A stretch of DNA of 32,000 nucleotides. It comes from Candidatus Brocadia sp. Lineage in GTDB: Bacteria; Planctomycetota; Brocadiia; Brocadiales; Brocadiaceae. Of this stretch, positions 3,071-16,271 are shown piece after piece. Position 1 is the stretch's first letter. Each line of letters opens with the position of its first letter. The stretch covers positions 1 through 32,000 of the forward strand of contig SOEU01000031.1 in NCBI GenBank assembly GCA_021646415.1. Reading direction: 5' to 3'. Below the pieces are notes generated by a model. The model was not told where the DNA came from and ran no database searches. It saw only the letters and a program-made list of their open reading frames with translations. A program made the position numbers and the translations under genes.

Positions 3071-4312
3071 TCAATGAGATTTGCTAAACTTGCTTATCAC
3101 CAAACATGAATTATTTCCATCATAATCCATGGTATTTATCAACGCATTGTGTATTTCTTTTCTAAAGGGTTTTTCAAGGATAAGACTTAAGTTGATTTCC
3201 TGATCTTTGTTGCTATGATTGATGATGTGGGGTATTTGACTTGTGTTGATGGACATGACCGTTGAAATGAACTGTGCTGCGCCTGAAGCGCCGTAAGACT
3301 CCCCCACATTCGATTTGATTGCGGATATGGGGATTTGACTGCTCCCTGTGCCAAAATAAGATTGGATTGCCTTCGCTTCGACTGCATCCTGCATCTTGCA
3401 TCCGTTTGCATTTGCACTGATGAGATCAACCTCTTCTTTCTTTACACCAGCGTCTTCCAATGCATCATGCATGGCCTTTTCGGCGCGACGCACCCTTGCA
3501 TCTGACGGATGGCTTTTACCGCCCACGAAGGTATTCCCAAAGCCCTTTACCTCCGCATAGATATGGGCTCCCCTGTCCATGGCGTGCTGAAGCTCTTCAA
3601 GGATAACCACGTAACTGCCTTCTGACATGACAAAGCCATTTCTTGCCTTATCAAAGGGTAAACTCGCCTCTCTTGTGCCGTCAAGTCCGGACAGAAGGCC
3701 GCGCAGGTAAAATATAAGATACAAATCAATGGAAATCTGCTCTACCCCCCCTGCCACGATTATCTTTGCCATATCCCGCTGAATCATCTTAGACGCATCC
3801 GCTATGGCATCGGTACTGGACGTAAAACCAGCAGATATGGTGCGTGCAAGTCCCTTCATCTTGAAGATGACAGATACGTAATTGATGGAAGAATTTAATG
3901 CGACGTCATAACTGAGCATGGGTGACAACTCAGATGGATTATTCCTGATAATTTCGTAAAAATAATCCGTTGTCTCAGAAAAATTTCCCAGGGATGAGCC
4001 AATGACCATGCCCATCTGATTTGATAAGGAACCGTCCTGCGGTATCTTTGCGTCATCCAGCGCCATCTTAGCGGCAGACGCCAGGAAACGTGTACCTTTG
4101 TTCAAGTATTTTAAACCTTTACTACCAAGGTATATTTCGGGTTTGAGGTCATTTATTTCGCCGCCGAGCTTGCATTTATAAGGAGACACGTCAAAAGAAG
4201 ACATAGGGACAATGCCCGATTTTCCCGCAATAAGATTATTCCAGAATGCCTCTTTACCGCATCCAAGAGGTGATACAACACCAAAACCGGTAATAACGAC
4301 TCTTTTTTTCAT
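3071..4312 (-). CDS. Beta-ketoacyl synthase-fold protein lacking the Cys-His-His triad (chain-length-factor-like partner)
   Basis: Collinear with FabF throughout (MKKRVVITGFGVVSPLG ... IIVAGGVE ... DGFVMSEG). At the active-site positions it reads ISAGFTSS (Cys to Phe), SANANGC (His to Asn) and KSNVGESYGASG (His to Glu). Confidence 0.85.
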   Translation of the reverse strand: MKKRVVITGFGVVSPLGCGKEAFWNNLIAGKSGIVPMSSFDVSPYKCKLGGEINDLKPEIYLGSKGLKYLNKGTRFLASAAKMALDDAKIPQDGSLSNQMGMVIGSSLGNFSETTDYFYEIIRNNPSELSPMLSYDVALNSSINYVSVIFKMKGLARTISAGFTSSTDAIADASKMIQRDMAKIIVAGGVEQISIDLYLIFYLRGLLSGLDGTREASLPFDKARNGFVMSEGSYVVILEELQHAMDRGAHIYAEVKGFGNTFVGGKSHPSDARVRRAEKAMHDALEDAGVKKEEVDLISANANGCKMQDAVEAKAIQSYFGTGSSQIPISAIKSNVGESYGASGAAQFISTVMSINTSQIPHIINHSNKDQEINLSLILEKPFRKEIHNALINTMDYDGNNSCLVISKFSKSH

Positions 4313-4399
4313 ACGTTTTTGTTATACTTTATCCACAAAAGCTCAAAAACATGAAGGGAATGATATGTTCGCTTCGCACTTCGTACACTCAGGACAGGC

Positions 4400-5611
4400 T
4401 TAACTCATCCTACTAAATATTGTCGTAGCATTATTACCACCGAAGGCAAAGGAATTATTTAATACGTGATCCACTTTTAACTCACGTGCCGCATTGGGTG
4501 CATAATCGAGATCGCATTCCGGGTCTGGTGTTTCATAATTAATAGTCGGAGGCACTATTCCATGCCTCAGTACCAGACAGCAAACAACCGATTCTACGGC
4601 ACTCGCAGCGCCCATGAGATGACCAATCATAGATTTGGTGGAACTGCAGGGAATCTTATATGCGCCCTCGTTAAATACACGTTTTATAGCAATAGTTTCC
4701 GTCTTATCGTTATGGGGTGTACCCGTGCCATGGGCATTGATATAACCAATTTGTGCAGGAGAAAGCCTTGCCATCTTTAACGCATCACTCATGCATTTTA
4801 CCGCTCCATCTCCTTCAGGATGGGGTGCCGTCATGTGAAATCCATCACAGCTCAAGCCATAACCAGCCATTTCCGCAATAATCGTCGCCCCGCGTTTTTT
4901 GGCAAACTCGTAACGCTCCATAATCAGTATCCCGGCCCCTTCCCCAATCATGAGCCCCTGACGATTTTTATCGAAAGGCTGACAGCGATCAGGAGCTAGG
5001 GCTTTGAGGTTATGAAAGTGGGTAAATTCCGTTTGAGGAATCATGTCACCGCCGCCAACCATTACCACATCCACCTTATTGTCCACAAGGAGGTCATACG
5101 CCCATGCAATGGCGTGATTGCCCGATGAGCAGGCATTCAGCGAAATCATGGCCGGACCTTCAAAATCAAAATAGTGAGCGAGAACATTGGTAATCGAATT
5201 AGGCGGGTAAACTGCGGCAACGGTTTTATCAAAACCATTGTCTTTTTTCGAGGTATCTAACCGCAGGAGCCTTTCAAATGGCGTTAATTCGGCTGCCAAC
5301 GTTCCGATGGCAATACCAAACCGCTCCCGATCGGATTTCTTGTCATGTAACAAACCACTTTCCTGGAGTGCCTCTCTGGCTGCGTAGTAGACGTATTTAT
5401 GGATAGTGTTTTCCTTGATCTGATTCTCTAATGCAACATCTAAGTGAAAATCCTTTACCTCACAGGAACGATGCACCTTGTATTTAGAGGTATCAAAGGA
5501 CTTCATCTCATTGGCCCCGTTTCTGCCCTGGATAAACGATTCCCAGCTTTGCTTTACGCCAGTCCCGACGGGTGTAACTAATCCTAACCCTGTAATTACA
5601 ACCTTTGCCAT
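4400..5611 (-). CDS. Beta-ketoacyl-ACP synthase II family (FabF-like), catalytically intact
   Basis: SLNACSSGNHAI (active Cys), INAHGTGTPHND and STKSMIGHLMGAAS (both His), C-terminal NSFAFGGNNATTIF. The listed ORF starts at a TTG (5620); the ATG at 5611 gives MAKVVITGLGLVTP. Confidence 0.9.
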   Translation of the reverse strand: MAKVVITGLGLVTPVGTGVKQSWESFIQGRNGANEMKSFDTSKYKVHRSCEVKDFHLDVALENQIKENTIHKYVYYAAREALQESGLLHDKKSDRERFGIAIGTLAAELTPFERLLRLDTSKKDNGFDKTVAAVYPPNSITNVLAHYFDFEGPAMISLNACSSGNHAIAWAYDLLVDNKVDVVMVGGGDMIPQTEFTHFHNLKALAPDRCQPFDKNRQGLMIGEGAGILIMERYEFAKKRGATIIAEMAGYGLSCDGFHMTAPHPEGDGAVKCMSDALKMARLSPAQIGYINAHGTGTPHNDKTETIAIKRVFNEGAYKIPCSSTKSMIGHLMGAASAVESVVCCLVLRHGIVPPTINYETPDPECDLDYAPNAARELKVDHVLNNSFAFGGNNATTIFSRMS

Positions 5612-5746
5612 AGTGTTCAATCTTTAAATAATAGAGGTCAACTATTCACTCACATAATGCGAATAAGTTGACCTATAATAATTAATAAGTACGACAGCCC
5701 TTATGTTTTGCTCTGAAATACTATTGATAAGAGAATTATTCAGAAC

Positions 5747-7228
5747 TCAGGGTGATACCTCAATCGGTGTCAAATCCGCCTTTTTCCCAGCTCTTTTCGA
5801 TTGATTATATCGTTTTAATGCCTCTTCATAGAACCCAGATGTCTGCAATTCTTTTAGATTTTGGATCAGATGCTGATAAACGGACTGCCAATCCAAATTT
5901 ACCCTGAATGCAAACATGGCGGCATTCATATTATCCTTTAATATCTCTTTTGCATTCTGAAATCTCTGCCGCAATACCTCCGTGGCGTAAATCCTGTCAT
6001 ACAAATATTGAAAGCCATCAATAAGTTCCTGAAGAGACATGTTTTTGAGGATATACGTGAGGTGGTGAGATGTATAATATTTCCAGTCCTCCGGAAAGTT
6101 TGTCCTGAAAAGTCTTCCCTCTCCGTTCAACCTGTGATAAAGCGGCGTATTAATAAATGGACACAAAATGCCGCAGGTCATAATATCAACATGGGAATCC
6201 AGAACAAAATCGGCAACCTGCTTAAAGGTTTCCGGGGTATCGGCATCATTTCCAAAGACCATTGTCCCCCACACGGCAAGGCCGTGTTTGCGGATATTAG
6301 CGATGGCCTCAAAATAATTCTCAATAGAGATGCGCAAATTTACATTCTTGTTCATCGTTTTCAAGGCTTCTTCGTTGATGGATTCAATCCCAATTAATAC
6401 CCCAACACATCCACTTTTCATCATGTATTCAAGGGTTTCGTCGTCTTTATAAATATTAAGGGAGGTAAAACCAAACCAGTTCTGGTAAATACCCCTTTCC
6501 ACCATACCCTTAAAAAGGTCCCGGACACGCTCGTTGGACTTTTTGCTGTGCCCGTAAAAGTTTTCGTCCGTCAGGATCAAACCGCGATATTGTCCCTTAA
6601 TGGATTCGAACTCATCAAGGACATCCTCGATGGGTCTTTCACGATATTTCCTTCCCTGAAACTGAGGGACAGAACAAAACTCACAGCTAAAGGGGCATCC
6701 TGCTGTCGTTATGATACCTGAATATCGGTATTTATACTTATCCTTCAAATACTTTCTATCCGGACGCAATCCCTGATATAACTCCATGGGTGTCAGAACA
6801 CCATCGTATCTTTTTTGGAGACGGCCTTTTTCAAAATCACCAATGATCTTTTCCCATGTGGTTACAGCTTCCCTGGTCACAACACAATCCACATATTTTG
6901 CCGCCTCTTCCGGGTAACTTGTTGCGTGAATACCGCCCATAATCACCGGAATACCCCGCTTTTTACAAGCAGTAGCTATTTGATATGCACGATGGGCCTG
7001 ATAACTCACCGAAGTAATGCCAACCAGGTCAGCCCCCCCAAAAGTAATCTCCCCTGTATTTTCATCAATCGCAAGCTCCTGAGTTTCATCGATGATATCG
7101 ACTTGCCAGTGTTTTGGTGTTATTACCTTCAGATAGCCGAGATTCACCGGCATTTGGTTTAATACAGAAACATTTTCCTCACCAACATTTCCAATTGGAT
7201 GTGGATTGATTAATACAAGTCTTTTCAT
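5747..7228 (-). CDS. B12 (cobalamin)-binding domain radical SAM enzyme
   Basis: N-terminal Rossmann-like B12 domain (RLVLINP ... GADLVGITSVSY ... GIPVIMGGIHATSYPEEA) followed by the radical SAM cluster motif TTAGCPFSCEFCSV (CxxxCxxC). I prefer the start at ATG 7228 (MKRLV), with GAGGA 6 nt upstream. Confidence 0.9.
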   Translation of the reverse strand: MKRLVLINPHPIGNVGEENVSVLNQMPVNLGYLKVITPKHWQVDIIDETQELAIDENTGEITFGGADLVGITSVSYQAHRAYQIATACKKRGIPVIMGGIHATSYPEEAAKYVDCVVTREAVTTWEKIIGDFEKGRLQKRYDGVLTPMELYQGLRPDRKYLKDKYKYRYSGIITTAGCPFSCEFCSVPQFQGRKYRERPIEDVLDEFESIKGQYRGLILTDENFYGHSKKSNERVRDLFKGMVERGIYQNWFGFTSLNIYKDDETLEYMMKSGCVGVLIGIESINEEALKTMNKNVNLRISIENYFEAIANIRKHGLAVWGTMVFGNDADTPETFKQVADFVLDSHVDIMTCGILCPFINTPLYHRLNGEGRLFRTNFPEDWKYYTSHHLTYILKNMSLQELIDGFQYLYDRIYATEVLRQRFQNAKEILKDNMNAAMFAFRVNLDWQSVYQHLIQNLKELQTSGFYEEALKRYNQSKRAGKKADLTPIEVSP

Positions 7229-7301
7229 GGACATTCCTCGTTTAGATGCAGAAAACACAGAAAAATCAAATTCTTTTGTCTACGATATTTTCTGGTCGGA
7301 G

Positions 7302-7700
7302 TCAGTCACCAGACAAAACTTCTGGCATTGCCTTTGGTACTAACAAAACCTGGGCAATAGCGTAATCCTGACAGTGGGATAATGATACAGCTATAGTGTT
7401 GATCCGTTTCTTGTCTGCCAATTCTTTTACACTGCCATAAAGATTCAAATAGGGTCTGCCCATTTCGTCATTTAAGAGCTCAATATCCGTCCATTTCATT
7501 TTACCGACCCAACCAGTTCCCAGAGCCTTGAACATTGCCTCTTTCGAGGCGAAACGAGCTGCAAAATGTTGATATTTATTCTTCTTTTGTTTGCAGTACT
7601 CTACCTCTTTTTCGGTGTAAATCCTCTTTAAAAAATCCTCATTAGCAGAAAACAACTTCTCAATACGTCTTATTTCTATAATATCAATACCAACATACAT
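7302..7700 (-). CDS. acpS: Holo-[acyl-carrier-protein] synthase (4'-phosphopantetheinyl transferase, AcpS type)
   Basis: 132 aa. MYVGIDIIEIRRIEK, FAARFASKEAMFKALG and SLSHCQDYAIAQVLL fit the AcpS pattern GIDIVEI.RI ... RFAAKEA..KA.G ... S.SH....A.A.v. Confidence 0.85.
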   Translation of the reverse strand: MYVGIDIIEIRRIEKLFSANEDFLKRIYTEKEVEYCKQKKNKYQHFAARFASKEAMFKALGTGWVGKMKWTDIELLNDEMGRPYLNLYGSVKELADKKRINTIAVSLSHCQDYAIAQVLLVPKAMPEVLSGD

Positions 7701-8229: not shown

Positions 8230-8520
8230 CTAGAAAAATTGTATCTGACTATCCTTCATCTTTTGATATATGGATGACCAGGATCTTTTTGCATAGATGA
8301 TAGGTATCCCCCGATTGCCGGCAAATTTCTTTATCTTATAAGCCAGGTTATGATTAACAAAATCATACAGGAGAATAATAAAATCGGCCTTTTCTGGAAT
8401 TCTCCCACGGATCTTTTGCCCATTCCTACCAGTTAAATGCTGAATATCTGTTATCCCCAGTTTGTCAAGCTCTCTTGGGATACTTCCCAGATGATCACCC
8501 CCTACAATTATTACTGACAT
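8230..8520 (-). CDS. DUF2325-like small protein
   Basis: MSVIIVGGDHLG ... KADFIILLYDFVNHNLAYKIKKFAGNRGIPIIYAKRSWSS fits my recollection of the DUF2325 pattern (VGG ... aDlvvv.td.vsH ... ak..g.P.v...s.S.s). Confidence 0.55.
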   Translation of the reverse strand: MSVIIVGGDHLGSIPRELDKLGITDIQHLTGRNGQKIRGRIPEKADFIILLYDFVNHNLAYKIKKFAGNRGIPIIYAKRSWSSIYQKMKDSQIQFF

Positions 8521-8577
8521 TTTACATCTCATTTCATGAGTGTCCCATTAGACCAATTTTAGACAATTGTTCATTCA

Positions 8578-9735
8578 TCAAACTTTTAATAAAAGATTTT
8601 CTATTTCCCTTGAATTTGAAAAGTTCTCTTGCTCAAACTTAAATGCTTTTTCATTAAAAATAGCCAAACAAGCACATACCACATTAAAATCATAAAGTAT
8701 GCCTCTGTTGTGTGAAATTTCATTTAACGCCTTATCTAAAGGAAAGGGATGCCTATAAGGTCGGGGTGAAGTCATAGCATCAATAACGTCGGCCACACTG
8801 AGAATTTTTGCTTCCAGGTGAATATCTTTACCTGACAGACCAAAAGGATACCCGGAGCCGTTAACCCTTTCATGGTGTTGAAGCACAATTTGGGCAACCG
8901 ACCAGGGAAATTCTATTTCCTTCAATATATCATAACCTACCTGTGTGTGGTTCCTGATAACACTCAATTCAGCCTTAGTAAGCTGGACAGACTTATTGAG
9001 AATTTCTTCAGGTATGGATATTTTCCCTATATCATGGAGCAATGCAGCCAAACGAACCCCGGCAATCCTATCTTTTGAAAGAGACATCTCTTCCGCTATA
9101 CAACAAGCCAGGTGGGCTACCCGTTTCTGGTGGCCTGCTGAATAAGGATCCCTCGACTCAACTGTTAGCGCCAAAGTCTGAATAATACCTCTTAAAGACT
9201 TCTGCAGTTTCTCAATACTTTGTTTCGATTCATTCTCCTGCCGTTTCCGGGCATCGATTTCTCCCATTAATTCTTCATTCAACTCCATAAGCCTCGATGA
9301 ATGCTCAATCATTCTTTTCTCTAAAGATTCGTTCAGCACGAGTAACCCCTCTTCGGCCTGTTTACGAGCAGTAATATCCCTGGCTATCCCCATAACTCCA
9401 ATAAGCTTCCCTTTTTCATCCCTCAACGGAAAATTTCTATACTCACATAATATCTTTGTATTCTTAAAACAGAGTTCATATTGAGGACTCTCGCCTTTTA
9501 ATGTACTCGTAAAGGCATCCATCGCTTTTTTTAAGTTATCTTCGTCGAAAAGGGTTGCGAATGGTTTTCCGTAAAATTCCTCTGGTCTATGACCCGTAAA
9601 CTTTTCAAATATTTTATTTACAAATAAAACATTTCCCTCTGTATCATAAATGTAGGTAAGGTCTGTCACCCCGGAAAATAACAATCTCATCAGCTCATTT
9701 TCCATCAATTTATAAACAATCTTTGGCATTTCCAC
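8578..9735 (-). CDS. PAS-domain HD-GYP protein (probable c-di-GMP phosphodiesterase)
   Basis: N-terminal PAS (aa ~16-125), a coiled-coil linker, then an HD-GYP domain: HQKRVAHLA, LLHDIGKISIP, HHERVNGSGYPFGL. GTG start at 9735 lies 9 nt after GGAGG. Confidence 0.85.
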   Translation of the reverse strand: MEMPKIVYKLMENELMRLLFSGVTDLTYIYDTEGNVLFVNKIFEKFTGHRPEEFYGKPFATLFDEDNLKKAMDAFTSTLKGESPQYELCFKNTKILCEYRNFPLRDEKGKLIGVMGIARDITARKQAEEGLLVLNESLEKRMIEHSSRLMELNEELMGEIDARKRQENESKQSIEKLQKSLRGIIQTLALTVESRDPYSAGHQKRVAHLACCIAEEMSLSKDRIAGVRLAALLHDIGKISIPEEILNKSVQLTKAELSVIRNHTQVGYDILKEIEFPWSVAQIVLQHHERVNGSGYPFGLSGKDIHLEAKILSVADVIDAMTSPRPYRHPFPLDKALNEISHNRGILYDFNVVCACLAIFNEKAFKFEQENFSNSREIENLLLKV

Positions 9736-9787: not shown

Positions 9788-10039
9788 TTATTTCAGTTTT
9801 TGTTGAAAATTAAAATATGCTTGCCATTTTGTTATACGAAGGAAAACGACCCATCCAATAACCAACGACAACAACGGGATTACTTTGCTCAATCCATTGT
9901 ACATATTTGTGCCAATGTGATCGCTTTTGTGGCAACAATGGACATCGTCATAATTTTCCCTTTTGCGAACTTACAAGAGTACTACCGCTGCCACAGAAAT
10001 CAAGATGCTGATTATCAGAAAGGTAAAAAAAATATTCAC
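9788..10039 (-). pseudogene. Small SD-led ORF (GTG, 22 codons, TAA) whose in-frame continuation stays open 60 more codons; CcoS/FixS-like, possibly nonsense-disrupted
   Basis: Hand translation of the minus strand: AGGAGG (10052..10047), 7 nt, GTG at 10039, then MNIFFTFLIISILISVAAVVLL, TAA (9973..9971), then VRKRENYDDVHCCHKSDH... to TAA at 9790..9788. A single N-terminal TM helix followed by V-R-x4-Y-D-D at residues 24-32 resembles the CcoS pattern W.VRSGQYDDL. Confidence 0.3.
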
Positions 10040-10363
10040 CCTTTGCCCTCCTTTTTTAAAAACTTTTCTTATAAAATATGCTATATCAAAATGTATGCCA
10101 AAGGCTGTGGGAAATAATTTTATTGCTTTTTAGCAATGAGGACTCTTCGTTCTCCAGTTTGCATGCAAAAACTTTTTTACAGATCCGAAAGACCATGACA
10201 TTGAAATTTCCAGGTATGAACTTATTATTTGCTGTTAATAAAAACTGATGCAGAAAGGCAGGGAGGGTTTTAAATAACTATTTTAATGCTATTGATTTTT
10301 TCTACGAGAAGAAAAAAGTTATGATCAAGTCACTATGAATTCATTCAGACCACATTAAAAAAG

Positions 10364-10411
10364 TGTGTCATGACACACAAGTGTGACGTCACACTTGTGT
10401 GTCATGACACA
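10364..10411. repeat. 48-bp perfect palindrome made of three 14-bp palindromes; intrinsic terminator of the response-regulator gene and/or operator array
   Basis: TGTGTCATGACACA-CAA-GTGTGACGTCACAC-TTG-TGTGTCATGACACA, checked by hand as its own reverse complement, centre between 10387 and 10388. On the minus strand it is followed by C + T6 (10363..10357). It lies 70 nt downstream of the regulator stop codon. Confidence 0.9.
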
Positions 10412-10481
10412 TAATAAAGAAGAAATTTGTGGTTAAATTTGTTTTGGAATGCGATTGCGCCGCACGAGGGAAGTTCTCGTA

Positions 10482-12182
10482 TCATTTATCTTGTATCCTT
10501 ATCTTGTACTCTTTCATTTTTCGATAGATAGTACGTCGGCTCATGCCCAACAGCCGGGCAGCCCTGGCCTTGTTCCATGCAGATCGTTCCAGTGCCCGAA
10601 GGATAACCTTTGATTCGTCAGGTATTACATCTTTGGGATGAGATTTAGTTCCAATTACGTCTTTAAAAGCAAGTGGCAGATGATCTACAGTAATTATGTT
10701 TTGATGGCAGAGGATAAATGCATGTTCCAGGGTATGTTCCAGTTCCCGAACATTACCTGGCCATGAATAATTCATAAATATTTTTTGGACATCAGCAGAT
10801 ATTGCGGCAATATCCTTATCTAGCTTTTTATTAAACTTTTTAAAAAAGTGTTTTACCAGTTGCGGTAAATCTTCCAGCCTGTCCCTTAACGGTGGTAGAT
10901 TCATTTCCACTACTTTAAGCCGATAATACAGATCTTCCCGAAACTCACCGCGCCTGACTTTTTCCCGAATATTCTGGTTCGTAGCGGCAACAACTCTGAC
11001 ATCCACTTTGATGGGATTCGAGTCTCCGACACGCTCAAATTCTTTTTCCTGTAATACCCTCAACAGCTGGAGTTGTATCCTGGGAGATATATCACCAATT
11101 TCATCCAAAAATATGGTTCCACCATCTGCCTTCTGAAATCTGCCAGCCCTATTCTGAGAAGCACCAGTAAAGGCACCCTTAACATGGCCAAAGAGTTCGC
11201 TTTCAAGTAAATTCTCTGACAAAGCTGAGCAGTTTACTTTGACCAGTGGTTTGTGGTTGCGTTCTCCGGTGTAATGGAGCGCCTCAGCTACCAGCTCTTT
11301 ACCTGTCCCACTTTCTCCCGTTATTAGGACTGTAGTCTGAACATCGGCAAGGTCTTCTATCAAAGAGTAAATCGCCTGCATCTTCTTACTTTTTCCTATA
11401 ATATTGTAGAATTTCCTGCGTTCTCTCATATCCCTTTCCAGATCAACCAGATGAGTATCGTCTCTTACCACTAAAACTGCCCCGGAAAAGATGCCTTTAT
11501 TATCCAAAAGTGGGTAGGTAGCAATGCTTACAACCTGCTGTGGATGAGAGTTGTGCTTGCATTCGAGATTACAAATTTCAATGGGTTGCTTTGTCCTGAT
11601 GGTTTCTTTAAGGGCATCGAGACACTTCTCATCACAATGTCTCTGAAGCAAACTCATTGATTTCCCAATAGAGACACGAGATAAGTCACAAATATTTTTG
11701 GCTGCTTCATTTAATTCGACTACTAACAAATCCTTATCAACGGTAATAATTGCATCCTTTACACTTCTGAATATTGCCTCAAGGTTTTTTCGATATTTCT
11801 CCTTTTCATCTGCCAGCATTTTATGCTGTAATGCTACCTTTGTAACACGCAATAAGGTATCTTGAAGCACGGGTTTAGGAATATAATCGAAGGCACCCAC
11901 CCGGAGTGCATCCGAAGCAGTCTCAATATCAGGAGCACCGGTAATCATGACAACCGGACAAGAGAGATTTTTTTCCTTAATATATCTCAGGATATCAATG
12001 CCACTTTTATCGTCTAAAATAATGTCTGCAAATATCAAATCAAAATCAGATTCATCAATCATTTCCAAGGCCTCGTTATAGTCCCTGGCAGTTGTCACCC
12101 CATATCCCTCATCTAAAAGGAAGCTTTCAAAGGTAAATCTGATATTCTCTTCATCATCGATTACAAGAATTCTTGCCTTCAT
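10482..12182 (-). CDS. Sigma54-dependent response regulator (REC-PAS-AAA+-Fis HTH; NtrC/AtoC family)
   Basis: REC: RILVIDDEENIR ... DLIFADIILDD ... PVVMITG. AAA+: GESGTGKE, GAFTGA loop (VKGAFTGAS), FLDEIGD. C-terminal HTH: AARLLGMSRRTIYRKMKEY. GGAGG lies upstream of the ATG. Confidence 0.92.
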   Translation of the reverse strand: MKARILVIDDEENIRFTFESFLLDEGYGVTTARDYNEALEMIDESDFDLIFADIILDDKSGIDILRYIKEKNLSCPVVMITGAPDIETASDALRVGAFDYIPKPVLQDTLLRVTKVALQHKMLADEKEKYRKNLEAIFRSVKDAIITVDKDLLVVELNEAAKNICDLSRVSIGKSMSLLQRHCDEKCLDALKETIRTKQPIEICNLECKHNSHPQQVVSIATYPLLDNKGIFSGAVLVVRDDTHLVDLERDMRERRKFYNIIGKSKKMQAIYSLIEDLADVQTTVLITGESGTGKELVAEALHYTGERNHKPLVKVNCSALSENLLESELFGHVKGAFTGASQNRAGRFQKADGGTIFLDEIGDISPRIQLQLLRVLQEKEFERVGDSNPIKVDVRVVAATNQNIREKVRRGEFREDLYYRLKVVEMNLPPLRDRLEDLPQLVKHFFKKFNKKLDKDIAAISADVQKIFMNYSWPGNVRELEHTLEHAFILCHQNIITVDHLPLAFKDVIGTKSHPKDVIPDESKVILRALERSAWNKARAARLLGMSRRTIYRKMKEYKIRIQDK

Positions 12183-12440: not shown

Positions 12441-15400
12441 TTAAATTCTATCAAAGTCAGGTATTGTGGGTAGGATAACTACAGCTTTGGTAAACTCTCC
12501 TTCAGCAGAATCAATCAAAAGCTTACCACCATACTTACTGATAACGCCGTGGCTGATGCTCAAACCTAGCCCGGTCCCTTTACCCCGTGGCTTCGTGGTA
12601 AAAAATGGATTCATCACCTTATCCAAAATGTTGGTTGGTATACCGGTACCCTGATCGTAAAAGGTAACCTTTACTGCCGGGGAATTATTCAGTGTTACTT
12701 CTTCACCTTGGATCTCAAGAATTTTCCTGTCATGTTTTCCCGGGTATTTACAATTCAAGGCATACCGCGCGTTACTTATGATATTTAAAAAGACCTGCTG
12801 GATCTGCTGAGGATGTACAATTATCCTGGGTAGTTCTTTTGGAATATCCACAATTAACTGAATACTATCCTTTCGTAACTGCGCATCTACAAGAACTAAC
12901 GTATCAGACAATATTTCACGTACATGGACAGCACTCCTTTGCTCTTTCCTGTCACTGGGCCTGGCAAAATGGAGAAGGCTCTTTACTATATTGGCTATGC
13001 GGTGCCCTTCTTTTACAATCCGATGAGCAACGTCATTTTCTCTGCTCCCCTTATGACTTTTATTGACCAGTATCTGGGCACAGTTGATGATACCCGTTAT
13101 GGGATTGTTGATTTCATGGGCCACACCCGCGGCCAGTTCACCTAATGATACCAGATGTCGTAAGCGTATTGCTTCCATCTGCAATGCCACCTTTTCGGTA
13201 ATATCCCAGAAAATACCTAATATGCCAATTATTTCGCCCCTTTCATCTCTTATTGGAGTTTTAACCATATGTATGGTCAACTCACGTCCATCCTTTGTAT
13301 ATTTTTCTTCGATGTCCTCCGTTTGTCCTAACCTCATAATTCTCCTATCATCTGCAATATACTTTTCAGCTAAATTTTTATGAAAAAAATCATAATCTGT
13401 CTTGCCAGTAATCTCATCCGGTTGAATATTTAAATCCCTGGCGTAGTTTTCGTTACAGGATACATAAATTGAATTTTTATCCTTATAAAATATTCTTTGC
13501 GGAAGATTTTCAAGCAGCATTCTATACTTCCTTTCACTCATTCGGAGCGTTTGCTCCGCTTGCTTGCGGGCAATACCAAGTGCAATAATGTCAGCTGCGG
13601 AGGCCAAAGCCCTGAAGATGAATTCGTTAAGCGATTTCCGGGCAAACATTGCTACAACCCCTACAAGGCGATCCTGTACAACCAGGGGAAATCCGGCAAA
13701 GGCAACCATTCCTTCCCGTTTTACCCAGTCTTTGTCGTGGATATATGGATCGTCGATAACGGAGTTTATCAAATAAGGCTTGCGATCCAGGGCTATAAGT
13801 CCGATCTTGAATTTGCCGACAGGGATTCTGCTATGAGAACCATTTTTATGAGTATACATCCCGGCGCTGGCCTGCAATTCCAGCACGTTTCCTTCCTCGT
13901 TCAGTGTCCAAATACGGGCGAACGCCGCATCGAGATTATTGACTATGGCCTCTGTACAATGGTAAAGAATTTCATGCAAGGTATCACCCTCAGTAAGGGC
14001 AATCCCTACATCCCTGACAAATGCCGCCAGACGCATTCGCTCCACCAATTCCTTAGTCCGCTTTTGCTCGGTAATATCGATCCCAAAAGAGATCATTCCC
14101 GTAACCTTCCCTTGCTCCCGCACCTCACTGTTCTGCCATGAAATGTATCTTTTTCTCCCTGCCTTCGTAAAAATGGTATTTTCAAAAGTCTTGGTCAACT
14201 GACCGTCTGACTGCCATTTGGTAAATTCCTGCCACACATGGGGATGCTTACCCCTGGGCACAAGTATTTCAAACCAATTTTTACCACTCACCTCAGCTTT
14301 TTTATAACCCGTAATTTCCTCGGCGACCTTGTTAAATATCTGAATATTTCCCATCACATCCAGCCCTACAACCATTACATTGGCTGTCTCAATAAGATTT
14401 TCAGCATAATCTTTTGCCTGTCGCAGGGCATCAATCATTCTTTGACGCTCTGTGATATCTCTGGCAGTACCGATAATCCCAATTATATTTCCGTTTTCAT
14501 CTCTCCATGGAAGATTTTTATATTCGCATAAAATTCCAGTATCTTTAAAAATTAGTTCATATTGCGGACTTGCTCCTTTCAATGTCATCGTGTAAACATC
14601 TGTTGCTTTTTTCAGGTTCTCTTCGTCGAAAAGAGGTGCGAATGGCTTTCCAATAAACTCTTCTGGTTTGTGACCGGTAAGTTTTTCAAAGGTGCGATTT
14701 ACAAACAATATGTTTCCGCCCGCATCACAAATATACGGCAAATCACTTATTTCAGAAATGAGTATCTCATATTTCTTTAGTTCAACCTTCGCCTTTTTAT
14801 GTTCGGCAATCTCCTCTTTGAGAAGTTTATTGGCATTTGAAAGCTCGACAGTCCGTTCAAGAACGCGCATTTCCAATTCACTGTTTGCTTCTCGCAACAT
14901 TTCTTCCATTCGTTTGTGTTCTAACGCATTAACAAATATTTCCGCCACCATTTTTAGCATGGCGATATCTTCACTCGTCCATGCTGTCTGCCTCAGAACC
15001 GAATCAAATCCCAAAAGTCCAACAAGTGATCCACCATAAATCATGGGAACGATTACAAATGATTGAACTGATTGTAATTGTCGCAGTTCTCTTTCGGCGC
15101 TTGCACAATCGGGCAGGTCACTTACCCGAGGAACATGAATAGTTTCGAACCGCTTCAGCTTCTCCATCCCCCATGGAAAATGATTAACAGGAATTCCCGT
15201 AAGATTTTCTATCTGTGGCAGAATGCCCTCCGCGCACCACTCGTGCGTATTGTCCATCCTCTCTTCACTGTCTGAGTACAGAAAGACATAACTGCGGTCA
15301 ACACCAGCGAATTCCCCGATCATTTTCAACGCACGGTTTATACCATCATCAACCTCGTTTGGTGCCAAGTTGATAAAGTTTGTTGATATGGTTGCAACGA

Positions 15401-16271
15401 GCTCTTCCATCTTTGCCCGATACCTCAACAACTCCTCCGCCCTCTTGCGTTCAGCAATTTCTTGCTTTAGTTCATCATAAGACGTCTTAAGTGAACTGGT
15501 CATCCGGTTAAAATTCATGGATAATTGTCCAATCTCATCTTTAGAATAGACCTCTATAGTACGTGTGAGATCACCTCTGGCAATATCAAGCGTAATATTT
15601 GCCATTTGTTGTAATGGTAAAACAATGTATTTGGTGAGAAAAACGGTAATACATATCCCGCCTAAAATTATGATCAAACCCATTGGGATAACACTTCGCC
15701 AAATAATCTGATGGATCCTTTTGTTCAATTTATGCGGTGATAAACCAATTTGTAAAAAACCCAGGGTATGTTGCCTTGTATTTACGGGGATTGCTTCGAA
15801 CACCTGTGCGGCAAATACCTCTTCTGAAAAAGTTTGTTCGAGAACAGGTACAGAAAAATCATAGAATGCCTCCCGTGAACAGGCAAGCAAGCAATCGGTA
15901 AGCAGTATATCCAGATTTTGTGAACCTTTTCCGGTGGGAATTTCTTTCATCTCGATGTCAAGCCAGGGTGCCTTCTCTTCATACAAGACCGACTTGATAC
16001 CTGATATACGCAAATAAGCAATTTCTTCTTCCCTGTCGAGAGCCTTTATCCTTTTGACAGGGGTATCAAGAAATGCAGGTTGTGAGTAACTCAGGGCGTA
16101 TTTGACTTCGATATCCTGTGCAAGCAGCATAACAAGGGATGTACCGAAACTTTTTAGCGCCACCTCCTGTTGCCTTTTTGCATGAATTAAAAAGAACAGG
16201 CAACTAAGCATGCCAATAATGATTACCAGTGAACTCATAAAAAGGATAAGTTTTGTACGGATACCAATCAT
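12441..16271 (-). CDS. Multidomain sensor histidine kinase (2 TM with ~160-aa extracytoplasmic loop, HAMP, GAF, PAS x2, GAF, PAS, HisKA, HATPase_c)
   Basis: TM helices near aa 8-30 and 193-215. HAMP: PLQQMANITLDIARGDLT. H-box: LGELAAGVAHEINNP. ATPase boxes: NIISNARYA, DQGTGIP, FFTTKPRGKGTGLGLS. PAS and GAF segments are inferred from repeated PAS-like ARDIT.. endings and GAF-like blocks. Confidence 0.9.
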   Translation of the reverse strand: MIGIRTKLILFMSSLVIIIGMLSCLFFLIHAKRQQEVALKSFGTSLVMLLAQDIEVKYALSYSQPAFLDTPVKRIKALDREEEIAYLRISGIKSVLYEEKAPWLDIEMKEIPTGKGSQNLDILLTDCLLACSREAFYDFSVPVLEQTFSEEVFAAQVFEAIPVNTRQHTLGFLQIGLSPHKLNKRIHQIIWRSVIPMGLIIILGGICITVFLTKYIVLPLQQMANITLDIARGDLTRTIEVYSKDEIGQLSMNFNRMTSSLKTSYDELKQEIAERKRAEELLRYRAKMEELVATISTNFINLAPNEVDDGINRALKMIGEFAGVDRSYVFLYSDSEERMDNTHEWCAEGILPQIENLTGIPVNHFPWGMEKLKRFETIHVPRVSDLPDCASAERELRQLQSVQSFVIVPMIYGGSLVGLLGFDSVLRQTAWTSEDIAMLKMVAEIFVNALEHKRMEEMLREANSELEMRVLERTVELSNANKLLKEEIAEHKKAKVELKKYEILISEISDLPYICDAGGNILFVNRTFEKLTGHKPEEFIGKPFAPLFDEENLKKATDVYTMTLKGASPQYELIFKDTGILCEYKNLPWRDENGNIIGIIGTARDITERQRMIDALRQAKDYAENLIETANVMVVGLDVMGNIQIFNKVAEEITGYKKAEVSGKNWFEILVPRGKHPHVWQEFTKWQSDGQLTKTFENTIFTKAGRKRYISWQNSEVREQGKVTGMISFGIDITEQKRTKELVERMRLAAFVRDVGIALTEGDTLHEILYHCTEAIVNNLDAAFARIWTLNEEGNVLELQASAGMYTHKNGSHSRIPVGKFKIGLIALDRKPYLINSVIDDPYIHDKDWVKREGMVAFAGFPLVVQDRLVGVVAMFARKSLNEFIFRALASAADIIALGIARKQAEQTLRMSERKYRMLLENLPQRIFYKDKNSIYVSCNENYARDLNIQPDEITGKTDYDFFHKNLAEKYIADDRRIMRLGQTEDIEEKYTKDGRELTIHMVKTPIRDERGEIIGILGIFWDITEKVALQMEAIRLRHLVSLGELAAGVAHEINNPITGIINCAQILVNKSHKGSRENDVAHRIVKEGHRIANIVKSLLHFARPSDRKEQRSAVHVREILSDTLVLVDAQLRKDSIQLIVDIPKELPRIIVHPQQIQQVFLNIISNARYALNCKYPGKHDRKILEIQGEEVTLNNSPAVKVTFYDQGTGIPTNILDKVMNPFFTTKPRGKGTGLGLSISHGVISKYGGKLLIDSAEGEFTKAVVILPTIPDFDRI

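Follow-up and report, generated by a model that had tools for sequence, protein, structure and literature searches.

A 48-bp palindrome in Candidatus Brocadia: a likely three-site sigma-54 enhancer with signs of a locus-specific hairpin constraint

We analyzed a 48-bp perfect palindrome at positions 10364–10411 of a 32,000-nucleotide stretch of Candidatus Brocadia sp. DNA (contig SOEU01000031.1; hereafter the window). The palindrome lies between a gene encoding an NtrC-family response regulator and a gene encoding a PAS-HD-GYP protein, and comprises three dyads arranged as GTGTGnCATGnCACAC, 2 nt, GTGTGACGTCACAC, 2 nt, GTGTGnCATGnCACAC. Comparison of genomes makes it likely that this array is an upstream activating sequence (UAS), or enhancer, for sigma-54 activation, and that the adjacent REC-PAS-AAA-HTH_8 regulator or a close paralog is, somewhat less securely, the protein that binds it. 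An earlier note, made from the letters of the window, had proposed a UAS consisting of three dimer sites for the neighboring enhancer-binding protein (EBP) acting on a downstream unit composed of a small open reading frame (ORF) and the HD-GYP gene. The comparative evidence supports this proposal: the array stands beside regulator orthologs across phyla, sigma-54 promoters point outward from it, and it is one of few conserved islands in its spacer. The array shares with the UASs of bacterial EBPs (bEBPs) its tandem dyads, an outward -24/-12 promoter within ~70–300 bp, and a nearby EBP that bears a helix-turn-helix (HTH) domain and co-occurs with the motif.

Architecture and authenticity of the palindrome

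Recomputation confirmed the geometry described in the earlier note. Positions 10364–10411 (TGTGTCATGACACACAAGTGTGACGTCACACTTGTGTGTCATGACACA) equal their own reverse complement across all 48 bases and are laid out as TGTGTCATGACACA-CAA-GTGTGACGTCACAC-TTG-TGTGTCATGACACA. The 14-mers at 10364–10377, 10381–10394, and 10398–10411 are each perfectly palindromic, with centers at 10370.5, 10387.5, and 10404.5 that are spaced 17 bp apart; the left 14-mer grows to a 16-bp palindrome (10363–10378). On the minus strand, the palindrome begins 70 nt past the stop codon of the regulator (ORF 10482–12182) and is followed by C (10363) and T6 (10357–10362). A 48-bp perfect palindrome is expected by chance ~1e-10 times in 32 kb (32000 x 0.25^24), and the runner-up in the window measures 14 bp. 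The description "three palindromes" holds one independent extra fact, which is that the outer 14-16-mer is self-complementary, because symmetry of the whole forces the central unit and the right end. The middle of every palindrome is itself a palindrome, so that the symmetry of the central 14-mer is automatic, and a palindromic left end dictates an identical right end. The outer units belong to a family with the consensus GTGTGnCATGnCACAC, in which ~11 bp separate the half-site centers. The elements of the array are as follows.

10364–10411, no strand: three-unit array and 48-bp palindrome; with its flanking bases it reads 16-2-14-2-16 over 10363–10412
10363–10378, no strand: outer unit 1, GTGTGTCATGACACAC, a GTGTG-N6-CACAC dyad, promoter-proximal on the minus strand
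10381–10394, no strand: central unit, GTGTGACGTCACAC, a GTGTG-N4-CACAC dyad
10397–10412, no strand: outer unit 3, GTGTGTCATGACACAT, regulator-proximal
10357–10362, minus (regulator-sense) strand: T6 tract after the hairpin, a possible terminator U-tract

We rejected the possibility that the palindrome is an assembly artifact, as two independent Logan contigs (run SRR8731049) hold one arm each. Both break within the palindrome (L001 ends at 10382, and L002 begins at 10393), which a k-mer graph would be expected to do, and the finished Brocadia genomes CP091279 and AP021856 contain equivalent palindromes. A fold-back chimera was likewise rejected because the flanks of the palindrome lack complementarity. 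The palindrome is a systematic contig-breaker in anammox metagenomes; Logan contigs and some metagenome-assembled genomes end in or beside it (also L011, L012, and L017).

The units do not belong to a local repeat family. A search of the 32-kb window for further copies of either 14-mer with up to three mismatches yielded chance-level matches only, and in ~280 kb of neighboring Brocadiaceae loci copies were found at the orthologous position only. Rfam and tRNA scans of the window returned no match at or near the palindrome.

Distribution of the array across genomes and phyla

We scanned GTDB species genomes for the pattern TGTGNCATGNCACA-N3-5-TGTGAC, for which we estimate ~50 chance matches, and obtained at least 120 stretches; copy numbers derived from the scan are lower bounds. 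Several 16-2-14-2-16 arrays were found in each anammox genome represented, including at least five in the complete genome of B. pituitae and at least six each in B. carolinensis and Brocadia AMX1; overall, Brocadia genomes contain at least 5–8 arrays apiece. Two parts of the array that the pattern did not force were nonetheless retained: the third unit, GTGTGnCATGnCACAC, stands at the expected distance in nearly all anammox copies listed, and the scanned arrays keep the right half of the central unit (CACAC or ACAC).

Outside the anammox bacteria, the array lies beside the 3' end of an ortholog of the Brocadia regulator in 14 of the ~51 matches listed. Because the scan started from the pattern and not from the regulator, this adjacency was not selected for. 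In 12 of these 14 loci, the array lies 10–45 nt from where the tblastn match ends, and in the other two (L094 and L135) this distance is 184–194 nt. Counted from the stop codon of the ortholog, the array of other phyla stands 10–60 nt away. The regulator matches share 53–68% identity, and eight of the 14 loci also have a match to a histidine kinase upstream. The groups represented include Desulfobacterales, Smithella, Geobacter, Thermodesulfobacteriota, Nitrospirae, and Gammaproteobacteria. Arrays from these organisms (e.g., L037 and L124) have the same 16-2-14-2-16 architecture but do not keep the long stem. In Scalindua, the array is found ~40–50 nt from the 5' end of the regulator gene, in a divergent spacer, and consequently it cannot be the terminator of that gene. 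Conservation across phyla together with this 5'-side position fits a binding site for a conserved regulator, unlike the sequence of a terminator. The polarity of the array relative to the promoter is inconsistent across phyla (compare L037 with L100), for which reason we do not propose a directional model.

The genes that lie downstream of the regulator and array differ among phyla and encode a Rieske protein and cytochrome b (L037 and L124), PilJ-domain proteins (L067 and L107), CheA (L095), an MFS transporter (L059), or an M50 peptidase (L031). These comparisons indicate that regulator and site are conserved across phyla, with their output rewired. Within the regulator, the recognition helix of HTH_8 (WNK..AARLLGMSRRTIYRKI) is nearly invariant among array-associated orthologs. 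The helix is altered to WSR..SRSTFYRK in a Jettenia paralog that has a different repeat (n = 1 altered case).

The repeat that follows this Jettenia paralog (L014 and L015) is GTGTC-N6-GACAC-TTTT. Two Jettenia assemblies differ in its copy number, with two copies in L014 (11768–11800) and three in L015 (11768–11818), which amounts to a copy-number polymorphism of ~18 bp.

Six loci from Verrucomicrobia (L019, L023, L040, L063, L079, and L126) share a conserved variant, TGTGCCATGTCACAG-N-GTGTGACAT; a canonical promoter of the form TGGCAC-N5-TTGC lies exactly 69 nt from it. No ortholog of the Brocadia regulator was detected in the 8-kb blocks around these loci, and a different EBP may therefore use related motifs in Verrucomicrobia.

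Sigma-54 promoters and riboswitches associated with the arrays

Within 600 nt of an array, we counted 54 sequences in 136 kb that match TGG[CT]A[CT]-N5-TTG[ACT] and are directed away from the array, compared with 24 in 1669 strand-kb elsewhere in the same loci, a 28-fold enrichment. A cruder consensus score placed 43 of 121 arrays above threshold versus 4.9% of null windows. Distances between array and promoter cluster at 65–185 nt, and a distance of 99–101 nt recurs in several phyla.

Most Brocadia arrays outside the regulator spacer share a common arrangement in which the array is followed by an A/T-rich box resembling CATAAGTAATTGAAATTTAA, a variant -24/-12 box, and then a highly conserved RNA. 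The A/T-rich box is possibly an IHF site. The RNA was identified at the Rfam gathering score as a cyclic di-GMP (c-di-GMP)-I riboswitch (RF01051/RF03167) in 17 of the 18 Brocadia loci tested (L021, L022, L024, L038, L041, L053, L054, L056, L072, L076, L077, L087, L104, L105, L110, L113, and L133). The genes behind these riboswitches code for large proteins that lack Pfam domains, as well as for a subtilase, an autotransporter beta-domain protein, and a further EBP, and the flanks vary between array copies of one genome. No c-di-GMP riboswitch reached the gathering score in the spacer of the window or in the non-anammox loci, which indicates that the coupling to riboswitches is specific to anammox bacteria and to array copies other than that of the window.

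The regulator-to-HD-GYP locus

In every Brocadia lineage examined (at least eight, including the window, B. sinica, AMX1, CP091279, GCA_026647515, B. pituitae, DTUAMX2, and WS118), the array occupies the orthologous position between the regulator stop codon and the HD-GYP gene, 46–78 nt past the stop. The spacer around it is largely unalignable or diverged. Conserved islands in a 5-way alignment of the spacer are the array, a -24/-12 box (TTTGGCATACATTTTGAT; 10100–10085, minus strand), and a 22-amino acid small ORF; there are no others. The -24/-12 promoter is kept in the orthologous spacers L048, L114, L131, and L128. We found no convincing sigma-54 promoter closer to the array, between 10364 and 10100, by eye or by regular expression. 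The features of the locus are listed below in the order of transcription.

12441–16271, minus strand: cognate sensor histidine kinase of 1276 amino acids (HAMP-GAF-PAS x3-GAF-PAS-HisKA-HATPase by Pfam), in the same operon as the regulator and syntenic
10482–12182, minus strand: NtrC-family response regulator of 566 amino acids (REC-PAS-AAA+ sigma-54 activator-HTH_8 by Pfam), the proposed binder of the array
Between the regulator and HD-GYP genes: spacer of 746 bp that holds the palindrome
10085–10100, minus strand: sigma-54-type -24/-12 promoter, TGGCATACATTTTGAT, proposed as the target of the enhancer and situated 264 nt downstream of the array
9971–10039, minus strand: conserved hydrophobic small ORF of 22 amino acids, VNIFFTFLIISILISVAAVVLL, with a Shine-Dalgarno sequence (GGAGG), proposed to open the activated unit
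8578–9735, minus strand: PAS-HD-GYP protein, a predicted c-di-GMP phosphodiesterase (Pfam, synteny), the downstream target gene
8230–8532, minus strand: DUF2325 protein (Pfam), co-directional and syntenic with the HD-GYP gene

The regulator is 90% identical to a protein of Candidatus Brocadia sinica, which marks the window as DNA of an anammox planctomycete. The small ORF, which lies downstream of the sigma-54 promoter and ahead of the HD-GYP gene, is strongly hydrophobic and is conserved in B. sinica (MSIFFTFLIISILISVAAVVLL), Brocadia AMX1, and Jettenia (MLIFTVLVFVSILISLTVVICL), located at ~12118 in L003, ~6500 in L016, and ~12182 in L014. It probably encodes a real single-pass membrane micro-protein.

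The locus suggests a model in which the neighboring HAMP/GAF/PAS histidine kinase would phosphorylate the regulator, whose dimers would bind the three sites via their Fis-type HTH domains. The three dimers on the array would assemble into an active AAA+ hexamer that would loop to the sigma-54 holoenzyme at TGGCATACATTTTGAT, 264 nt downstream, and thereby switch on transcription of the small ORF, the PAS-HD-GYP phosphodiesterase, and DUF2325. The regulator-sense RNA at the Brocadia locus would end in a 22-bp hairpin and U6 that would probably serve as an intrinsic terminator or as a 3'-stabilizing hairpin. Such a hairpin would insulate the sigma-54 promoter from read-through out of the kinase-regulator operon. 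With a predicted c-di-GMP phosphodiesterase as its proposed target and c-di-GMP riboswitches behind its sister promoters, the system probably links the kinase signal to surface or aggregation genes that depend on c-di-GMP.

Two further observations concern the surroundings of this unit. Between the small ORF and the start of the HD-GYP gene, a second stretch common to the window and B. sinica (9900–9950, minus strand; L003, alignment A1 columns ~640–730) includes TTGGCACAAATATGTACAATGGATTGAGC, which contains a TGGCAC box, and a possible 20-amino acid ORF, MTMSIVATKAITLAQICTMD. Directly downstream of the HD-GYP/DUF2325 unit, positions 3071–7700 on the minus strand (corresponding to L002 2694–7323) hold two ketoacyl-ACP synthase genes, a gene for a B12-binding radical-SAM protein with DUF4070, and a 4'-phosphopantetheinyl transferase gene; the cluster is syntenic in Brocadia and Jettenia. 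We take this cluster to resemble gene sets that have been put forward for the synthesis of ladderane lipids by anammox bacteria.

Signs of a hairpin constraint at the regulator-to-HD-GYP copy

In the regulator-sense RNA, the palindrome is predicted to fold into a stem of 20–22 bp (-45 kcal/mol, z = -7.6 versus shuffles), followed by C and U6. The element thus has the stable hairpin and U-rich tract of an intrinsic terminator, 70 nt past the stop codon. We compared the arrays in the regulator-to-HD-GYP or regulator-to-paralog spacer (spacer arrays) with the other anammox arrays (n = 41). Non-palindromic positions per ~50-nt spacer array number 0, 0, 0, 0, 2, 2, 2, 2, 7, 7, 10, and 12, whereas the other arrays have a median of 10 (Mann-Whitney p = 9e-5). 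The difference is also seen at motif-free positions, defined as the 2-nt linkers together with the N6/N11 positions that vary in the outer units, where the arms are complementary in 30/32 cases in spacer arrays versus 47/120 elsewhere (Fisher p = 1e-8). Linkers are inverted in spacer arrays (AA..TT or TT..AA) and mostly the same on both sides in the others (AA..AA), as in a direct repeat.

Several individual arrays illustrate how the symmetry is kept. The B. sinica array reads GTGCCATGACACAC-TT-GTGTGACGTCACAC-AA-GTGTGTCATGGCACAC; its outer units lack self-symmetry, yet the whole is still a perfect palindrome. Further Brocadia lineages exhibit other paired changes, and L128 has lost one base symmetrically from each linker. 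In total, at least five distinct compensated states occur among the spacer arrays. Within Brocadia, compensatory changes at this locus preserve the long stem; conservation of the primary sequence, too, goes far beyond the requirements of a terminator. In Jettenia L013b, outer units 1 and 3 are direct repeats, and the array lacks both the long stem and the T-tract.

A pure enhancer needs no complementarity between arms at positions that are not read by the protein, which argues for a second, hairpin-dependent constraint. The comparison indicates that either a hairpin or cruciform constraint, or a mutational process that perfects palindromes, acts specifically on the regulator-to-HD-GYP copy. 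Termination or 3'-stabilization of the kinase-regulator transcript appears to be the most economical and most likely role for the hairpin, and this copy may well have an added role as terminator of the kinase-regulator operon.

Discussion

We consider an enhancer for sigma-54 activation the likely function of the array, and three other explanations must be weighed against it. The palindrome could be no more than a Rho-independent terminator of unusual length that closes the kinase-regulator operon, with incidental dyads and no protein reader. The hairpin with C and T6 soon after the stop codon, the great stability of the predicted fold, and the retention of the long stem by compensatory changes in Brocadia orthologs are all in its favor. 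However, the primary sequence and 16-2-14-2-16 architecture are kept beside regulator orthologs in other phyla that lack the long stem, and each genome contains many further copies, some of which are found in divergent spacers or 5' of genes. The 28-fold enrichment of promoters that point away from the arrays, as well as the direct repeats and missing T-tract of Jettenia L013b, also argue against this explanation, which we regard as highly improbable. The simple terminator considered in the earlier note is thus disfavored as the sole role of the element, but it survives as a probable superimposed role, given that arm complementarity is kept by compensatory changes at this locus only.

The dyads could instead be operators for another dimeric regulator, such as a repressor or a CRP/FNR-family protein; the earlier note had likened the half-sites to those of CRP/FNR. 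TGTGA/TCACA-like half-sites are present, anammox genomes carry several regulators as well as several paralogous EBPs, and the pairing of array and protein rests on sequence comparison. The geometry of a CRP site (TGTGA-N6-TCACA) is nevertheless absent; the half-sites are arranged as TGTGA-N2-TCACA in the central unit and as GTGTG-N6-CACAC in the outer units. This geometry also departs from that of FNR sites (TTGAT-N4-ATCAA), and CRP/FNR operators are centered near -41.5/-61.5 of a sigma-70 promoter. The arrays accompany sigma-54 promoters, not sigma-70 promoters, at enhancer distance (65–300 nt), they accompany orthologs of the adjacent regulator across phyla, and the recognition helix of that regulator is conserved along with the motif. 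The resemblance to CRP/FNR sites is therefore not borne out by spacing or promoter type, and a different dimeric regulator is an unlikely reader of the array.

A selfish or structural repeat of the repetitive extragenic palindrome (REP) or miniature inverted-repeat transposable element (MITE) type, present here by chance, would account for the several copies per anammox genome, the palindromic structure, and the breaking of assemblies at the palindrome. In contrast to REPs and bacterial interspersed mosaic elements, which lie in high copy number at unrelated intergenic sites, typically after 3' ends, the copies are tied in position to -24/-12 promoters and, within Brocadia, also to c-di-GMP-I riboswitches. 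Moreover, the flanks vary between copies of one genome, no second copy exists in the 32-kb window or in the ~280 kb of neighboring loci outside the orthologous position, and the array is kept at orthologous positions and, across phyla, beside one regulator family. We judge the chance that the palindrome is such a repeat to be very slight. Among the conditions that the earlier note named as counting against its proposal was the presence of identical palindromes throughout the genome as generic terminators or REP-like repeats; several copies per genome do occur, but they are promoter-linked sites of a regulon and not generic terminators or REPs. Together, these comparisons disfavor the pure-terminator, REP-like, and CRP/FNR readings.

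Several findings weigh against the enhancer and the hairpin constraint as we have described them. The scan pattern itself forced unit 1 and TGTGAC. The array and promoter of the window are 264 nt apart, and 250–300 nt apart in the closest orthologs (L048, L114, and L131), whereas most other copies have a distance of ~100–145 nt; the window promoter also has GA at -12, where GC is canonical. With centers 17 bp apart, successive dimers would sit on different faces of the helix, and the half-sites are separated by N4 in the central unit and N6 in the outer units, so that "three equivalent dimers" is a simplification. Each anammox genome encodes several close paralogs of the regulator, which makes the pairing of binder and array ambiguous. 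With regard to the hairpin, the palindromy statistics use related sequences that are not phylogenetically independent, and neutral template-switch mutation can also maintain perfect palindromes. We rejected the T-tract as diagnostic of termination, since A6/T6 also flanks arrays that lie between divergent genes (L105); A/T runs flank most arrays.

It is possible, albeit on balance doubtful, that the palindrome performs a dual job, as a platform for three dimers of a phylum-spanning NtrC-family regulator in double-stranded DNA and as an RNA terminator of that regulator's own operon, at the head of a Brocadia regulon of surface and secreted proteins that combines sigma-54 promoters with c-di-GMP-I riboswitches. 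If so, the HD-GYP phosphodiesterase at the locus would feed back on c-di-GMP, and the regulon would constitute a two-input switch (phosphorelay AND c-di-GMP) for genes of anammox aggregation or biofilm formation. Granulation and biofilm formation, which are usually controlled by c-di-GMP, are central to anammox wastewater technology. To our knowledge, anammox bacteria are not yet genetically manipulable, and we know of almost nothing about their regulation. The present analysis supplies a DNA motif (GTGTGnCATGnCACAC-nn-GTGTGACGTCACAC-nn-GTGTGnCATGnCACAC), a candidate regulator (the REC-PAS-AAA-HTH_8 two-component system), and a candidate regulon, which would comprise the small ORF and HD-GYP gene here and, elsewhere in Brocadia, sigma-54 promoters and c-di-GMP-I riboswitches before genes of surface or secreted type. 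The motif-regulator pair is also present in sulfate reducers, Geobacter, Nitrospirae, and others, so that annotating a widespread family of regulators would take a single experiment. The locus-specific perfect palindrome, with its compensatory substitutions and symmetric indels, provides a natural example of a candidate protein-binding array under hairpin constraint.

Comparison with known systems

The closest parallels are enhancers of other bEBPs. At norR-norVW of E. coli, the NorR enhancer contains three GT-N7-AC dyad sites that are all needed for activation and on which three dimers are believed to assemble as one AAA+ hexamer, which activates a nearby sigma-54 promoter. The Brocadia array likewise consists of three tandem dyads, probably for an HTH_8-type bEBP, and adjoins the regulator gene. 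It differs from the NorR enhancer in motif (GTGTGnCATGnCACAC / GTGTGACGTCACAC), in input (a REC-PAS two-component system rather than GAF and nitric oxide), in its abutting sites at 17 bp, in its position (past the 3' end of the regulator gene, where the NorR sites occupy a divergent spacer), and in forming a perfect 48-bp palindrome. GlrR (QseF) binds three TGTC-N10-GACA boxes upstream of glmY that accompany a sigma-54 promoter and are conserved across species. The Brocadia locus resembles this system in pairing a REC-type NtrC-family regulator with a sigma-54 promoter preceded by three dyads of the TGT..ACA type. The two differ in spacing and in the sequence of the half-sites, and the GlrR boxes are separated and form no hairpin across the whole array. 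The NtrC sites at glnAp2 are another classic multi-dyad bEBP enhancer that the design of the array matches.

With a Rho-independent terminator, the element shares a stable hairpin and U-tract soon after a stop codon and a stem that is kept within the genus by compensatory changes. It is distinguished by a 22–24-bp stem with no loop besides the center of the palindrome, by conservation of primary sequence across phyla, and by recurrence upstream of promoters in non-terminator contexts. Comparative genomics of Desulfovibrio vulgaris identified EBP motifs built on TGT/ACA half-sites beside sigma-54 promoters that co-localize with the EBP gene (PMC4641369). The logic by which we link motif and regulator is the same; the D. 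vulgaris motifs have spacers of 9, 11, or 12 bp, compared with TGT-N8-ACA within GTGTG-N6-CACAC here (PMC4641369). No string match to the array motif was found in the D. vulgaris sigma-54 regulome paper (PMC4641369) or in a Geobacter paper. The literature that we searched contains no description of the motif, the regulator, or the arrangement of sigma-54 promoter and c-di-GMP riboswitch in anammox bacteria, which is not proof of novelty. Judged by these likenesses, the array belongs to a known class, that of bEBP enhancers, and what sets it apart is its apparent dual constraint and the regulon with which it is associated.

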